A stretch of 64,000 nucleotides of DNA from a virus (lineage: Duplodnaviria > Caudoviricetes), in IMG/VR virus record IMGVR_UViG_3300033068_000943, positions 29,336 to 93,335 of that record. One strand, 5' to 3'. Position numbers and translations under genes: made by a program. The notes below the pieces were generated by a model. It was given only the letters and a program-made list of their open reading frames with translations, searched no databases and had not been told where the DNA came from. Below, one piece after another: positions 28,525 through 51,183 of the stretch (its first letter is position 1; each line of letters begins with the position of its first letter).

Positions 28525-29958
28525 TAAGGAGCCGACGACCGAACAAAGGACCAGCACATGGCACGCACCCGCGCAACTATCACAGCCGGCAACAAGACGA
28601 TGCGGGCGACCACTGTTTTGGCCATGATGCGGGCAGCAGCGTTCCGCCGTGGTTTCGAGGATGTGAAGCGCGGCAGGCCGTTTGCGCTCGACGCCTTCGA
28701 TATCGACAACCATTGGCAGTACGAGCGCGGGCGCCAGTTTGCCTGCATTTTCGACGGTCAACTCAAGGTCGGCCGGAGGGTGACGCGCGCGGCGCATGAA
28801 GCATATTGCGCCGCTCGCAAGGCCAAAATCATCCTTTGACGGCGTTGCACTACATTCGGCTGCCCGCGTGATCGACAGGAGAACCCGATGACCTTCGCCG
28901 CATGGCTTGATACGTTTGTTGCCGAGAAAGGAATCGACACGGAAGCGCTGCTTGAAGTCGAAGGCGCGTCCGGACTCAACATCATCCCGGTCTGCGTGGT
29001 GCTTTCCGCGATGAAGGCGGCCTCGGCGCGCGAGCAGGGCGCCATCAAGGCGATGATCGTCCGCATCGATTTCGCCAACCGCCCCGTGCTTCCCTACTTC
29101 AAACATCTGGCGCAAGCCATCGCGATCTGAGGAATGCATCATGCCCGTCTGGATTGAAGTCACGGTGCAGCGATGAACCAAAAAGCGGCGTGGAAGGCCA
29201 TGAGCCTGGAGAGCGCGGGCGCACAAGCCCGCGCCGAGGCCGATGCTGGCGGGCTGATCCGCGTCATCGAAGGTGAGACACCCCATTCGGGAGACGCCAC
29301 CATCATCTGGAGCAATCACCCCGGCGACATGCGGGATCGCATCAAGGCCCTCGAATCCGCCCTGATCGCGATCAACGAGGTCGCGACGGATGCCGGGAAC
29401 GACGCGCGCCACACCAAGCCCGAACGGTTTGCGTTCCGCGCCATCGGCGCGACAATCCGGCGCGAGATGAAAAAGGTCGGGCTGTAGATCGTGCCCGAGC
29501 GCCCACGCAACAGAACCCCTGAGGCTACCCATGACCGACCGCACTTGGATTGCCCGCGCCATCCCCTGCTATGCCCACGAGCTTGCCGACACGATTGACG
29601 CTCGCCGCAGCCTTGTCGCCAAGCTGGAGCGCGTCGTTATCGAGGAAGAGCGCCGGAACGACACCGGCCACTGGGCTTACGATCACGCTCGCCACAACGC
29701 CTTGCGCCGCGCCCTTCACGATGAGCGCGCGGCACTGGAGCGCATTATAGACGAGATGCATCATTGACGATTCGGTAACTAACGGATGCTTCACGTATCT
29801 GATGTTCATTCGGCCGGCGACCCTCGTCGAGACCATCGTCGAGGAAACCCTGATCGACAGCGCGCTGGACGATTTTCCCGCTGTTCCGCCAAGGCGAGCT
29901 GGGCAGAACCATCCTCGACACCCTCAGACGCCTCGGAGGGTCCGCCAGCGCCCCGGAG

Positions 29959-45834: not shown

Positions 45835-46135
45835 GATTTCAGTTTGCGCGCCCGGATGTTGGTCGCGATGTTGTGCCCCGCGTGTCCAGCCGACGCATAG
45901 CCGTGACCATCGACCGCCAGAATTTCTGCCAGCCGCGTGTCAGCGTCGATCGTTTCCGGCGTCGAACGCATGTTGAGGATCGGATCGATCTTGATGGTAT
46001 CATTGGCCAGCCGGAAATTCTCATCGCCGTAGAACTCAGCTTCTTTCGCCGCATCCTCCAGGCCTTTGTTGTACGCGCGCTTCTCTAACACGCTCATATC
46101 GCCTCGTCTCCCGCGACCACCCATGCCGCCACCGC

Positions 46136-46411
46136 TCACACCAGCTCCCATACCACTTTCCTCCCATCAAACCCAGCGCGGCGGACATGACCGTCACCAG
46201 TCAGCCCGTCCAAAGCGTTAGAAACGCTTCCAATCGTTCGCCACCCCATCGCGTCGGCAATTGTCTGATGCGATGGCCAGCCGCGCCCCGCGTCGATTTC
46301 CGACTCGATGAACGCCAACACCCGAGCCCGCCCGGGAGGCGGATCACGCTTCTCCGGGCGCTCGATGCGCACGAACGTTCGACCAAGACGATGTCGCTCC
46401 CGCCGCATCAC
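46136..46411 (-). CDS. LexA-type winged-HTH protein
   Basis: RVLAFIES..WPSHQTIADAMGWRTIGSV..L..L..GHV. Confidence 0.6.
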   Translation of the reverse strand: MMRRERHRLGRTFVRIERPEKRDPPPGRARVLAFIESEIDAGRGWPSHQTIADAMGWRTIGSVSNALDGLTGDGHVRRAGFDGRKVVWELV

Positions 46412-46753
46412 TCCGCCGCCTCTTGCCGTTGCCGCACCGCGCGCGATGGCCTCTTGACGTGTCCGCGGCGCCGCGCCTTGATCTGCACATTACCGAGAAT
46501 TGTCACAACACGTCCCCGGTCATTAAGCACCAGCTTCCCGCCTTCCGGGATAACTACAGACCGCGCCCCCATTACCACTGCCCACCGGACGACATGAGTC
46601 GAAAGAGACTGCCGAATCGCGTCCACATCAACGCCACTGACTCTCTCAAGGTATCGCAGAATGGCGTGATCCGAGATGTCCGGCCGCCAGTTTGTTCTAA
46701 GACGCACATTGACGATTCGGACCCGGTGCTCCTCCATGGTTAGCCTCGTCTGT

Positions 46754-46829
46754 TGGCAGCCGCCCTTGGACTCGAACCAAGAGCCGTCGCGCTCAAAACG
46801 CGACACTCTACCCGTTGAGCTAGGCGGCC
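46754..46829 (-). tRNA. tRNA-Gln(TTG)
   Basis: TCGCG-TTTTGAG-CGCGA, G73-CCA. Confidence 0.85.
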
Positions 46830-47012
46830 ATGTCGTCTCGACGCGGCGTGCGCTGCTCCCGTCGTGCTGCCATATCTGCGGTGCACCGCAGGCCGGCCAC
46901 GACAGCCGGATGGCGCTATATCCCCTGACGGGCGGGGCGAGTCGTTAGCTCGCTTTGTCTGGCAGCAGCGCGCGCCGCGCCGATTTGATATTGTCAATTG
47001 TCAACGCCCGCG

Positions 47013-50000
47013 TCAATCGTTTTCCTTGGCGAACAGCGGGAGATCGTTGGGATTGTCCAGATTGTTCTTACTCGCCGCGACGGCTGCCCTCTTCGTTGGC
47101 TGCGTCGCGAGTTCCATCCGGCGCTTGATGTCTTCCTGATATTCAGGCTCGCGCTCGATCAGGATAGCGCGCATGCCTTCGCGCCACGCAGCCTCCCCCG
47201 TAGTGCCGGTCCCGGCAAACGGATCGAGGCAAACGCCAGGGCGCCATTCTAGGCGGTGTCCACAATGCGCACAGGCCGGCTGGTTATGATCTTGCCATGG
47301 CAGTGAGGACAGCACAGCGTGCTTCGCCTCGGCAGATTGAGCTTGTCGTGATCCCCCTTCGCCATCAACTCCAAATTCTCCGGTCGATTGTCGGTCTTGA
47401 CGCCGTTTTTGTGATGCACGACCTCGCCTTTTGTTAAGGGGCGGCCGATTAGCTGCTGCATGACCCACCGATGCTCGAAGACGTAGCCCCTCTGTGAATG
47501 GGATTGCGGATGATCCGGCATCCATAAGAGACGATAACCCTTGTTGCTGATCACAAAGCCCTTGGTGTTCTTCCTGTACTTTCCCGTCCACTTCGCCGCA
47601 CACGACCGACTGCAACATCGCCGCGCCCCATCCTTCCGAGGCTGGAATATTGTTCCGCACCAATCGCACGGTTTCGGTTTCAAGCCCTTGTTTGCCGCCG
47701 CACATTGTCGGCTGCAGAACCTGCCCGTGTGTTGATTGTCCCTCGGTTTGAAGTCCACTAGGCACCACGCACACTGGCGTATTGGAACTGGCCTTCTCGG
47801 TGCTATTTTTCGCATGGGTTGCGGCCTCGCAATTCGGACACGCCAACACCCTTTTGGGAGTCACTAGGCGGACCAGCCACTGCATGAGATCAAGGGGCTT
47901 GACTGTCGGATGCTTGGACCCGAGGCGATCATCTGCATCCGCCTTCGACGTGTAAAAGAATCGAGCCGCCGAAGCGCCGTCTGATCTGCGCATCCCCGGC
48001 AGTGCTGCGAAATCGGTCCCGCCGTTCTCGGTGTAGCGCCGATCGGCTGATGCCTCGCCATCGCGACGGGCTTTGCCTGGGGCTCTGCTCGCGTATTTTC
48101 CGTAAGTATTGTCGGTTGTACCGGATGGCTCCGTTCCCTTCACATCGCCTTGCTGTCCGGGGCTATCGGGGAAACAAGCCAGAACCTCGGGCGACCCATC
48201 GTGGCACAGATTAGCCGGCCAGCGGCCGAGATCGGTCGTGCCAGCGGCTTTGCTTCCGCCGTCCAGGCCCTTGCCAAGCCCGCCCGCACCCGTGCGGCCC
48301 GCATAGACGTTCCCGTCTGTCGGCTTCGCGTCGAGTTCGCGGAGGGGGCGGGCATCCGCCTCGATGCGACACCCGTCGATATTCAGGGCGCCCGTGCCAT
48401 GCTTGATGACATTCTCTGCCACGGTTCCGATCAGAGGTTTGCGAGCGACGCAGATCGGCTCCCAGGATGGTTTCAACGCAGTGCCCCAGCCGTCCCATTG
48501 TTTGGCGGCGTCAGTGGCGGGGATTTCTCTGCCGGGTTGGTAAGTGCGGCCGTCATCCTTGACCCAACTCCCGGAGATGTTCTGATCGGCGCCCGGGATC
48601 ATGCGCTTAACGGGAGCACCTACGGCAATCTTTTGGCGCTCGACGCCAGCGGCCTTGTCTATCCCCTTCGACACGTCATGGCTTTTCGGAAAGCCTGAAT
48701 TGCCAGTTGGGAACGCCATGCCGTCTCGAACGGCAACGAATGCCCCCGTGCGCACCGTCACGCACCAGATCACGCCGTCGTAATGCTCTGGAGTGATCCG
48801 TACCACAACGGATCTATGGCCCGGCCATGCTCGAACAGCTTGTGATCCCTGTTCGTCGAGAACAACATGAGATTGGTCGGACAGTTGTTTCGTGGATTGT
48901 GATCGATGTGATGAACCGACTCGGCTCGCGTCAGAAGGCGCCCAAGAATGCTCGCGACGACCAAGCGGTGTTCCATGACGTAGCCGTCCCGCCGTGACAT
49001 CGCCAGAAACTTCGGCGGACACCTCACACACTTCGGGCCAACATAGTTCCCGCGAGATCGAACGTATGTGACGCCACCCTTCCAGGAGGGATTGGACGGC
49101 CCAGTGAACCGCGCGACTAGCGCCGCCTCCGACTCCGGTCGCCACGCTGCCCGGCCCTTGTGCGCGTGCTTGGCCCATTCCGCCCCGCGCAATGCGCCGT
49201 TGCATTCGCGCGAGCAAACCGGGGTTCGGACCTTGCGCCGCCACGCTTGCGGTATCGTCTTTTCCTTTCCGCAAATCCCACATGCCACAGTCACGCGCCG
49301 ATTGAGGGGAGACGGCCGCCCTGCTGCCTTCGATCCAATCAGCGCATTCTTGCACACCTTCGAGCATGTTCGATTGCGCGTTGCCTGCTCCTTGGTCATG
49401 GCCGCGAAGGGCGACAAGCAGTGCTGGCAAGTTTTCCAGAACGGGTACACGCGCCTCGCGTTGCCGTGCAGCGTCCTCCGCGAACTCGAATGTTTCTTCT
49501 CCGCCTCGTTCAATGAGGCAGCGATGATTTCGGGAGACAACTTGCTCTCCATGAGGCGTTGTAATTCGATACATGGTGTCGCTGATTTGGTAGCGATGGA
49601 CATGCTCGACAGTTCCCCATTGATAGGTCTTTCGGGCTGAGTCGTATGTGAGGATTGTATCGCCCGCTTTCAACTCAGAATGATGCGAGAGGCCGCATGG
49701 TGTAACTGCCTGCGTGCAGTCATCGAGGCACCCGTAGGCCCAGCCAATCTGGTCCCTGATCTCAAACCCCGCATCCTCGATAGCGCACGCCATCCGGTGA
49801 TAGGTGCGCGTTCCCGAGAAGGCGACGACGTGCCCGCCGGGCTTGAGCACGCGCAGCACTTCGGCCCAGAACTCGACCGCAAACGCCGTCTCGCCGGTAT
49901 CCCATTGCTTGCCCATAAACCCGCCGCCAAGGCGGGTGTAAGCGCCACCCATGCCATCGGCCTTGGCGGGCGCCGCTCCAGCCTTGCCGAACCGCTTGAC

Positions 50001-50144
50001 GATGGAGACGAGCGCATAGGGCGGATCGGTGACGACGGAGTCGATGGAGTTGTCAGGAATTGAGCGCAGCACGTCCCGGCAATCGCCGGGGCGCAAAATC
50101 ACCTTCCCATCGAGAAATTTCACCTCATCTTCGCTCCCCATCAA
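47013..50144 (-). CDS. DNA amino-methyltransferase (N4/N6, beta class) with an intein and a second insertion
   Basis: VTDPPY near the N-terminus; HPTVKP and DPFAGTGTT near the C-terminus. Confidence 0.9.
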   Translation of the reverse strand: MMGSEDEVKFLDGKVILRPGDCRDVLRSIPDNSIDSVVTDPPYALVSIVKRFGKAGAAPAKADGMGGAYTRLGGGFMGKQWDTGETAFAVEFWAEVLRVLKPGGHVVAFSGTRTYHRMACAIEDAGFEIRDQIGWAYGCLDDCTQAVTPCGLSHHSELKAGDTILTYDSARKTYQWGTVEHVHRYQISDTMYRITTPHGEQVVSRNHRCLIERGGEETFEFAEDAARQREARVPVLENLPALLVALRGHDQGAGNAQSNMLEGVQECADWIEGSRAAVSPQSARDCGMWDLRKGKDDTASVAAQGPNPGLLARMQRRIARGGMGQARAQGPGSVATGVGGGASRAVHWAVQSLLEGWRHIRSISRELCWPEVCEVSAEVSGDVTAGRLRHGTPLGRREHSWAPSDASRVGSSHRSQSTKQLSDQSHVVLDEQGSQAVRAWPGHRSVVVRITPEHYDGVIWCVTVRTGAFVAVRDGMAFPTGNSGFPKSHDVSKGIDKAAGVERQKIAVGAPVKRMIPGADQNISGSWVKDDGRTYQPGREIPATDAAKQWDGWGTALKPSWEPICVARKPLIGTVAENVIKHGTGALNIDGCRIEADARPLRELDAKPTDGNVYAGRTGAGGLGKGLDGGSKAAGTTDLGRWPANLCHDGSPEVLACFPDSPGQQGDVKGTEPSGTTDNTYGKYASRAPGKARRDGEASADRRYTENGGTDFAALPGMRRSDGASAARFFYTSKADADDRLGSKHPTVKPLDLMQWLVRLVTPKRVLACPNCEAATHAKNSTEKASSNTPVCVVPSGLQTEGQSTHGQVLQPTMCGGKQGLETETVRLVRNNIPASEGWGAAMLQSVVCGEVDGKVQEEHQGLCDQQQGLSSLMDAGSSAIPFTEGLRLRASVGHAAANRPPLNKRRGRASQKRRQDRQSTGEFGVDGEGGSRQAQSAEAKHAVLSSLPWQDHNQPACAHCGHRLEWRPGVCLDPFAGTGTTGEAAWREGMRAILIEREPEYQEDIKRRMELATQPTKRAAVAASKNNLDNPNDLPLFAKEND
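47249..47815 (-). CDS. HNH homing endonuclease nested out of frame in the methyltransferase
   Basis: CxxC..CSxxC repeats; YVFEHRWVM..VVHHKNGVKTDNRPENL. Confidence 0.85.
   Translation of the reverse strand: MRKIAPRRPVPIRQCAWCLVDFKPRDNQHTGRFCSRQCAAANKGLKPKPCDWCGTIFQPRKDGARRCCSRSCAAKWTGKYRKNTKGFVISNKGYRLLWMPDHPQSHSQRGYVFEHRWVMQQLIGRPLTKGEVVHHKNGVKTDNRPENLELMAKGDHDKLNLPRRSTLCCPHCHGKIITSRPVRIVDTA
48699..49730 (-). mobile_element. Intein (344 aa) in the methyltransferase
   Basis: YG|CLDD.. start, block B SRNHR, end YDGVIWCVTV..TGN|SGFPK. Confidence 0.85.
48770..49603 (-). CDS. HNH homing endonuclease nested out of frame within the intein
   Basis: CQHC..CSKVC, CGIC..CSREC, NPSWKGG, YVMEHRLV..VHHIDHNPRNN..NL; start uncertain. 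Confidence 0.85.
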   Translation of the reverse strand: MSIATKSATPCIELQRLMESKLSPEIIAASLNEAEKKHSSSRRTLHGNARRVYPFWKTCQHCLSPFAAMTKEQATRNRTCSKVCKNALIGSKAAGRPSPLNRRVTVACGICGKEKTIPQAWRRKVRTPVCSRECNGALRGAEWAKHAHKGRAAWRPESEAALVARFTGPSNPSWKGGVTYVRSRGNYVGPKCVRCPPKFLAMSRRDGYVMEHRLVVASILGRLLTRAESVHHIDHNPRNNCPTNLMLFSTNRDHKLFEHGRAIDPLWYGSLQSITTA

Positions 50145-50590
50145 ACGCTCCTCCCCCGCTTCAAGCAGTCCTTGATGTGTTTGATCAGGCTGATCTCGGC
50201 GGTGCGGCGCATAAATTCACGCTCCCGCCGCAATAGGGCATGCTCGTACATTTGCGCCCGCCGAACCGGCGATACAGACCGAAGCCCGTCGTAATGTGCC
50301 GCCACGGCGAGCGTCTGATTGTGCTCCACCCACAACATATCGCCACGATGATCGTCCTTCCCTGAGATCGTATCGCGGAGCCGGCGCGCATAGTCACGCG
50401 CATACTCCTCCTCGCCCACCCTCGGCTCCGAGGAGGTTGCATACGCTTGCGCTGGGCCGCCAATCGCTACGCCGGGGCCAGACCCGAGCAGCGACCGTGC
50501 CGCCGCGTTCTCAACCAGCGTCGGCGTCGAGATGACGGCAACCGGCGCCGCCCTCAGGAACCCGCGGCGGTTCAATGCTCGCTTGATCAT
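50141..50590 (-). CDS. Hypothetical protein with Tat-like LNRRGFL N-terminus
   Basis: Coupled to both neighbours. Confidence 0.55.
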   Translation of the reverse strand: MIKRALNRRGFLRAAPVAVISTPTLVENAAARSLLGSGPGVAIGGPAQAYATSSEPRVGEEEYARDYARRLRDTISGKDDHRGDMLWVEHNQTLAVAAHYDGLRSVSPVRRAQMYEHALLRREREFMRRTAEISLIKHIKDCLKRGRSV

Positions 50591-51183
50591 TATTTTGCCT
50601 CCACAGGCGGCTCAGACGGCGCAGGGCTGGTTTTTTCGGATGGTCGGCTACCCCTGTAGCCAGCCCCCCTAAAGCGGCTCGCAAACGTGAATTCTGAGCC
50701 GGAGCGGCGTACCGTTGGCGGCGCGTAACACTTCTGCACGTGAAACGTGCAAAACGACATTCCCTCAACCGCCGCGTTCGGACAGTACCCATGGTCGCGC
50801 TCGTGTGGATGCCCGTAGATGTACCGGCAGCTCTTCGCTTCGAGATCGGCGAATGCAAGCAGTCGGTCCGGGCGCACATCCTCCGGAACCGGAGGCGCCG
50901 ACTCGAAACGCGCGACCGCACGCCGAGGCGGCTTTGCCGCATGCGACGCTCCGCCGTGCAGCGTAGAGCCCGGCGTTTTTGGCTGTGCCGCACGGCGCCG
51001 CACGTTTCGCACCGGCTGCCGGCTCGCCGACTGTTTTATGCCGAGCCGATGAGCCTTCCCCAGCACGGCGTTCTTGGTCGCGCCGCCGCCAATGCGCGCA
51101 GCGATATCCTTGAACGACAGCCCCTCCCCCAAAAGCGCTTTCAGCGCCGCTTCCCGTTCGTCCGTCCAAAACGTGTCCCGCAT
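50590..51183 (-). CDS. gcrA: GcrA-like cell-cycle regulator
   Basis: WTDER..L..L.EGLS..IA..IGG.TKNAVLGKAHRLG; C-terminal L..L...CRYIYG..YC..FC.FH. Confidence 0.85.
   Translation of the reverse strand: MRDTFWTDEREAALKALLGEGLSFKDIAARIGGGATKNAVLGKAHRLGIKQSASRQPVRNVRRRAAQPKTPGSTLHGGASHAAKPPRRAVARFESAPPVPEDVRPDRLLAFADLEAKSCRYIYGHPHERDHGYCPNAAVEGMSFCTFHVQKCYAPPTVRRSGSEFTFASRFRGAGYRGSRPSEKTSPAPSEPPVEAK

Follow-up and report, generated by a model that had tools for sequence, protein, structure and literature searches.

A hidden HNH endonuclease gene within a stop-free insert of a viral DNA methyltransferase, and the conserved cysteine pairs at the insert ends

The window analysed here, i.e. the whole stretch of 64,000 nucleotides (nt) that spans positions 29,336 to 93,335 of the Caudoviricetes record IMGVR_UViG_3300033068_000943 (IMG/VR), contains a gene for a DNA methyltransferase (methylase) whose coding sequence is interrupted, just ahead of motif I, by 204 in-frame codons that hold the complete gene of an HNH endonuclease in a second frame of the same strand. 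Sequence comparisons and structure models together indicate that this is probably a hidden mobile HNH insert which is read through as part of the methylase, and whose ends are closed by a clasp of four cysteines borne by the element itself, which probably bind zinc. The features that carry this reading are as follows.

47013..50144, minus strand: N6/N4 DNA methyltransferase gene, beta class, 1043 amino acids (aa), with two inserts (recognised by its open reading frame (ORF) and Pfam PF01555)
47241..47852, minus strand: 204-codon insert, aa 765-968, without a stop codon in the methylase frame
47249..47815, minus strand: hidden HNH_3 endonuclease gene, 188 aa, in the +1 frame
47829..47840, minus strand: N-terminal knuckle CPNC (C769, C772), within the leader of 37 nt that precedes the HNH gene
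47259..47273, minus strand: C-terminal knuckle CAHCG (C958, C961, G962), over the non-catalytic tail of the HNH protein
47825..47828, minus strand: GAGG, a possible Shine-Dalgarno sequence of the HNH gene, 9 nt before its ATG (weak, and not conserved in eight relatives)
47199..47228, minus strand: motif I LDPFAGTGTT (S-adenosylmethionine (AdoMet) binding), directly after the 204-codon insert, identified by its invariant columns

Two reading frames in one insert

The insert starts with RVLACPNC and ends with CAHCGHRLEWR, and is flanked by LVRLVTPK and PGVCLDPFAG. The closest empty allele (P0001 on contig L040, 83% identical in the exteins) reads PK-GG-T-CLDPF at this position, with the DNA sequence CCC AAG GGC GGC ACG TGC CTC GAT; as this allele displays the junction between AAG and GGC GGC, the insert boundaries are correct to within one codon. 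The first-pass annotation of this DNA had claimed an open insert of 204 codons at 47241-47852 and a complete HNH endonuclease of 188 aa in another frame of the same strand. The former is confirmed by the ORF, the empty allele of L040 and the stop-codon shuffles given below, and the latter by matches of the 188-aa ORF to Pfam HNH_3 (PF13392; E 7.9e-12, 45.1 bits against a gathering cut-off of 24.8) and to the HNH families of PHROG (best E 4.8e-26). The HNH ORF is preceded by 37 nt of the insert and followed by 8 nt, leaving approximately 45 nt of the insert outside it, and its +1 offset means that codon position 1 of the methylase is codon position 3 of the HNH gene. Within the insert, the third-codon-position G+C content tracks the HNH frame. 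Furthermore, the HNH catalytic block (EHR...HH.N...DNR.ENL...H) is invariant in 9/9 relatives, all of which also keep the CxxC/CPHC zinc sites that belong to the HNH protein itself.

The expected number of stop codons in the methylase (host) frame was obtained by shuffling the codon order of the HNH ORF and by resampling its synonymous codons. For the window insert a mean of 7.4-7.5 stops is expected and none is seen (P(0) <= 2e-4, i.e. <=2/10,000 trials), and across the window and eight diverse public loci (L030-L037) 4.3-9.3 stops are expected and none is seen, each with P(0) <= 0.004. The host frame is likewise free of stops in L041, a member of a second methylase subfamily, so that 10/10 loci lack them. 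Chance is far from sufficient to account for the open host frame.

Each of the eight fetched loci carries an intact HNH ORF of 151-238 aa in the +1 frame at the equivalent place; its start lies 19-49 nt inside the insert, and 0-23 nt remain between its end and that of the insert. In 36/36 pairwise comparisons the identity is higher in the HNH frame than in the host frame (means of 49.8% and 30.2%, respectively), and thus selection within the interior of the insert acts chiefly on the endonuclease. Gene callers reported the HNH ORF in none of the nine public loci (L030-L037 and L041), and the HNH endonucleases of these loci are missing from protein databases because they were skipped at this step.

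Cysteine pairs and the proposed clasp

To compare the methylase with its relatives, the best 120 homologs were collected, of which 95 could be scored at the loop preceding motif I. All 78 insert-less homologs have a five-residue loop (PKGGT or similar) without a single CxxC, and all 17 insert-bearing homologs possess exactly two CxxC motifs within an insert of 167-257 residues; loop lengths between these two classes are absent among the 95. The comparison with insert-less homologs that the first-pass annotation had called for therefore links the CxxC pair to the presence of the insert (0/78 versus 17/17). Of the outcomes that this annotation had named as refuting its reading (spliced or bypassed RNA, an inactive methylase, or a CxxC pair in homologs lacking the HNH gene), none was encountered in these sequence and model data. 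The reverse order of events, in which a native zinc ribbon was later invaded by an HNH gene, was considered and rejected, since none of the 78 insert-less loops has a CxxC and short intermediates are lacking.

Within nine host-frame inserts (the same set as used for the profile described below), the four cysteines and the glycine that follows the last of them are almost the only invariant residues. Similarly, C769, C772, C958 and C961 are invariant in an alignment of 70 sequences with 18-59% identity to the window protein, the other invariant columns being two interior residues and L973/D974 of motif I. Among 145 representatives in which both insert ends are present, 142 have the C-terminal CxxC and approximately 140 have both knuckles. 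The knuckles are located 4-8 and 8-14 residues from the insert junctions in every subfamily, and are separated from one another by 147-233 residues, where the insert with the shortest spacing (147) still holds an HNH gene.

Codon usage at the knuckles indicates at which level this conservation is maintained. Three of the four cysteine positions switch between TGT and TGC codons, and the two codons between the members of a pair vary freely. At the C-terminal knuckle, this switch is synonymous in the host frame and causes a V/A change in the non-catalytic tail of the HNH protein, and it may therefore be concluded that the host-frame cysteines are selected at the protein level. Additionally, the HNH stop codon comes after the C-terminal knuckle, and the residues beyond it (LEWRPG) are part of no HNH product. 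Selection thus acts on both frames of the insert, and selection on the host frame argues for translation of the insert.

Structure prediction, which had been proposed alongside the original claims, was performed with AlphaFold2 on the full protein (96 aligned sequences) and on the insert with approximately nine flanking residues (70 aligned sequences); both insert ends are predicted with confidence and the stretch between them is modelled as disordered. In the full-protein model the predicted local distance difference test score (pLDDT) is 91 then 75 over residues 761-780, falls to 31-43 over residues 781-950, and is 77 then 94 over residues 951-970. In the insert-only model the first and second knuckles score 94 and 96, respectively, with strands at 766-768 and 966-968, a helix after the first knuckle and bridges on either side of the second. 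No secondary structure is predicted for the intervening 170 residues, and their pLDDT is 31-53 across the models. As the two knuckles, which are approximately 190 residues apart, are both confident in isolation, the model appears to pack them together.

The arrangement resembles the zinc ribbons of the Pfam Zn_ribbon clan in that two knuckles (CPxC and CxxCG) each lie beside a short strand. It differs from them in the distance between the knuckles (147-233 residues rather than approximately 10-20) and in the helix that the insert model places after the first knuckle. The Pfam scores also remain below the gathering threshold: when the nine host-frame inserts were searched at E <= 1, the only matches were to zinc-ribbon models, sub-threshold and all on the C-terminal knuckle (Zn_ribbon_3, Zn_ribbon_8 and Zn_ribbon_IS1595), and a comparison of the host-frame insert with PHROGs gave no match.

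These data are best explained by the arrival of a mobile, free-standing HNH gene in the methylase loop that immediately precedes motif I. The insert would be removed neither from the RNA nor from the protein; instead, the ribosome would read it in the methylase frame, with approximately 170 residues serving as disordered filler. The CPNC and CAHCG knuckles would most likely bind one zinc ion, forming a small zinc-ribbon-like unit with short paired strands, and this clasp would close the 204-residue loop to approximately the two-residue gap of the native PK-GG-V turn. The looping-out by a zinc ribbon that the first-pass annotation had suggested is in this way supported, if indirectly, by strong comparative data and by structure models that agree with it. 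With the loop closed in this manner the AdoMet-binding fold should still be able to form, and the methylase may thus retain its activity. Translation of the HNH protein would start independently, at an ATG of its own in the +1 frame; the endonuclease presumably cleaves empty alleles within the conserved stretch encoding motif I, and the element would spread in this way.

Spread of the element and comparison with known systems

A profile built from the nine host-frame inserts was searched against 1.84 billion representative proteins and matched 266 of these at E <= 1e-3 and 178 at E <= 1e-10. All matches that were examined are PF01555 methylases split at profile position ~181-185, just before motif I, and they span at least two subfamilies, with either HPTVKP...LVTP or AHFATFP...AGCP preceding the insert. 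A word-based search with the insert alone retrieved only five proteins, and a search of viral contigs with the HNH protein yielded distant, partial matches only. The contig L040 also contains a free-standing HNH_3 gene (L040:2986-3482) approximately 500 nt downstream of the empty methylase allele, which could be related to the inserted HNH genes; a second N6_N4 methylase (L040:1-960) lies just upstream of the same allele.

The distribution of the insert is patchy. On an extein tree (FastTree; 96 methylases from the best-scoring homologs, 16 of them insert-bearing rows), the presence of the insert requires at least 9-10 gains or losses, nine of which are forced by well-supported branches alone, and none of 500 label shuffles gave as low a count of changes. 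The window methylase groups at 96% support with its four nearest relatives, all of which are empty alleles. Furthermore, P0002, P0003 and P0004 have one and the same host-frame insert, yet beyond GFPKSHDVSK, in the variable region, their exteins diverge strongly, which suggests a recent transfer of the element or recombination within the gene. The insertion site observed here lies in the DNA encoding motif I, the best-conserved motif of this methylase family, a choice of target common among homing endonucleases.

The closest known counterpart is the ShiLan domain of the mycobacteriophage methylase gp65, which was first reported in 2023, as an in-frame insert of enigmatic nature (Gosselin et al., PMC9957025), and was later found to hide an out-of-frame HNH gene in the absence of intron or intein features (Arsenault, Gosselin & Gogarten 2025, PMC11855218). 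A 'hairpin-like looping structure', or looping-out of the insert, was proposed for the host protein (PMC9957025, PMC11855218). Both inserts reside in PF01555 methylases (the ShiLan methylases are 41-47% identical to that of the window), comprise approximately 200 stop-free codons and contain, in another frame of the same strand, a complete HNH gene with zinc-finger modules; both lack an intron or intein signature and are patchily distributed, and in both cases an intein is present elsewhere in the methylase gene, at the same site. Conversely, the insertion sites differ, being between WEPIC and LARKPL for ShiLan and between LVTPK and GGVLDPF, before motif I, in the window, as do the frames of the HNH gene (+2 and +1, respectively). 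Homology between the two HNH proteins is distant (32% identity, E 2.6e-15). The ends of the ShiLan host-frame insert repeat 11 host residues and this insert shows no host-frame similarity to the window insert. Moreover, ShiLan is known from a handful of actinophages, in contrast to the 266 representative clusters of the family described here. The window insert is, on the basis of its site, its frame and an HNH protein only 32% identical, not the ShiLan domain proper. In Starcevich, the annotated free-standing HNH gene gp65 (L039:1-101) is positioned directly upstream of a methylase with a ShiLan-type insert.

Several observations weigh against a cysteine clasp as the general solution, or limit how firmly it may be proposed. 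The ShiLan host-frame insert has no CxxC and still persists, and three PF01555 methylases (P0211, P0215 and P0250) match the insert profile without cysteines at either end, from which it follows that the clasp is not strictly required for a read-through lifestyle; P0177 and P0212 have a variant N-terminal knuckle. The N-terminal knuckle sits in the HNH leader, where constraint at the nucleotide level, such as that of translation initiation, may contribute to its being conserved. A consistent ribosome-binding site for the HNH gene was not found in the window and eight relatives. As regards the structure, contact among the four cysteine sulfurs is something we infer from the models, and a VIA-align search of the small clasp model against 48,161 chains produced no match at Z >= 2, an outcome ascribed to the small size of the clasp.

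These points bear most directly on the explanation in which the insert is a floppy surface loop, as for ShiLan, and the cysteine pairs constitute an extra DNA-binding zinc finger or a signal linked to HNH expression. The persistence of a CxxC-less ShiLan-type insert, the three relatives without any of the four cysteines and the overlap of the N-terminal knuckle with the HNH leader are all compatible with it. However, neither knuckle is ever retained or lost without the other, and both lie close to the junctions in every subfamily; they and their flanking strands are modelled with confidence even without the methylase body; and the codon variation indicates selection at the protein level, rendering this explanation unlikely, though not negligible. 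It is more doubtful still that the methylase is dead in insert-bearing alleles, its frame being kept open, for instance, to avoid downstream polarity or to allow frameshifting into the HNH gene. The methylase may indeed be dispensable, as PMC11855218 argues for ShiLan gp65, but the window protein keeps every methylase residue that is invariant or nearly so in the family, nearly all of 158 insert-bearing proteins have motif I after the insert, and the C-terminal knuckle is invariant despite having no role in the HNH protein.

Removal of the insert at either the RNA or the protein level is highly improbable. Phage group I introns often carry HNH genes, and the HNH ORF could be borne by a group I or II intron, or be bypassed at the RNA level in some other way, with the open host frame being incidental; yet a permissive Rfam scan (E <= 1 over 46000-51000) detected no group I or II intron, giving only a transfer RNA (tRNA) and one chance small-RNA match, only approximately 37 and 8 nt of the insert lie outside the HNH ORF, and neither the lack of host-frame stops in 10/10 loci (4-9 expected) nor the conservation of the host-frame cysteines at the amino-acid level would be expected if the RNA were spliced. 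An equally improbable alternative is an unusual intein, i.e. a non-canonical protein-splicing or self-cleaving element, which the in-frame position at a conserved site and the presence of a true intein in the same gene might favour, but for which no Hint or intein Pfam domain was matched at E <= 1 in the nine host-frame inserts, the interior is predicted to be disordered, and the junction residues (R...R-P before G; R, S or P...R-P before G among relatives) vary and are not the intein nucleophiles (C or S at the start, and N followed by C, S or T at the end). The earlier statement that the insert lacks intein motifs is in agreement with these findings.

Inteins with out-of-frame homing endonucleases are on record (bioRxiv 10.1101/2025.01.02.630785; 10.64898/2026.09.14.751524). 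The window insert resembles them in that an endonuclease gene is overprinted on an open carrier frame whose ends are (in the present case, putatively) joined by a folded unit. It differs in that their Hint carrier splices itself out, whereas Hint blocks and junction nucleophiles are absent here, and the filler therefore most likely stays in the mature enzyme. Genes in pieces, such as nrdA of Aeromonas phage Aeh1, which is split by mobE, or split inteins on either side of an endonuclease gene (Dassa et al. 2009, cited in bioRxiv 10.1101/2025.01.02.630785), are a further product of free-standing homing endonucleases. They share with the window insert an endonuclease located in conserved coding sequence without an intron, together with rescue of the host function at the protein level, which in the case of the window would be provided by the clasp. 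Fractured genes yield two host polypeptides, whereas the window methylase is kept as a single one.

To our knowledge, homing endonuclease genes have been thought to survive in essential or conserved genes only by means of introns, inteins or gene splitting. The ShiLan papers added plain read-through as a fourth way, leaving without explanation how an enzyme tolerates an insertion of 200 residues, and neither of them (PMC9957025, PMC11855218) refers to zinc or to paired cysteines in the host frame. The clasp was also not described in the literature that was found on out-of-frame endonucleases (open-access papers and bioRxiv). The first-pass annotation had presented the insert as a possible third strategy beside introns and inteins; the read-through strategy itself had already been published as ShiLan and is not new, while the putative four-cysteine clasp, the insertion site and the size of the family are. 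The insert family may offer a structural answer to the question of tolerance, namely an element-encoded four-cysteine clasp located exactly at the two junctions, and the arrangement is a common one, with 266 sequence clusters in several methylase subfamilies and selection in both reading frames.

A bolder form of this proposal, which we consider to be evenly balanced between right and wrong, is that the paired cysteines act as a portable 'molecular staple', carried along by the endonuclease gene, which converts a 200-residue insertion into a harmless closed loop. If this were true, the staple would represent a splicing-free route for endonuclease genes into conserved protein-coding sites, and the clasp might even hold the two halves of the enzyme together after cleavage of the disordered linker. 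It would also be a possible design idea for placing large cargo in protein loops.

The host gene and its intein

The Pfam N6_N4_Mtase match (PF01555, E 4.3e-19) is broken into two separated stretches of the 1043-aa ORF. The motifs are arranged in the beta-class order, with motif IV (DPPY) near the N-terminus and motif I (FxGxG) near the C-terminus, and the invariant columns of motif I are represented by D974, F976, G978, G980, T981 and T982. The methylase core is modelled with confidence by AlphaFold2, its best PDB matches being CcrM, TTHA0409, M.BceJIV, M.MboIIA and M.RsrI.

The second insert of the gene is an intein, which has an out-of-frame HNH gene of its own.

48699..49730, minus strand: Hint-type intein, residues 139-482, which starts with CLDDC and ends at a TGN/SGF junction (C...TGN followed by S)
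48770-49603, minus strand: second HNH_3 gene, 277 aa, out of frame inside the intein

The frame offset of this second HNH gene is identical to that of the HNH gene in the 204-codon insert, and shuffles of its ORF predict eight stops in the intein host frame, where none is seen (P ~5e-5). The intein occupies the same site as that of gp66 of Mycobacterium phage Starcevich; the endonuclease region of the latter is in frame, in contrast to the out-of-frame HNH gene of the window intein. Approximately 180 nt downstream of the methylase stop codon lies a tRNA gene (46757-46829, minus strand; Rfam 59.5 bits).

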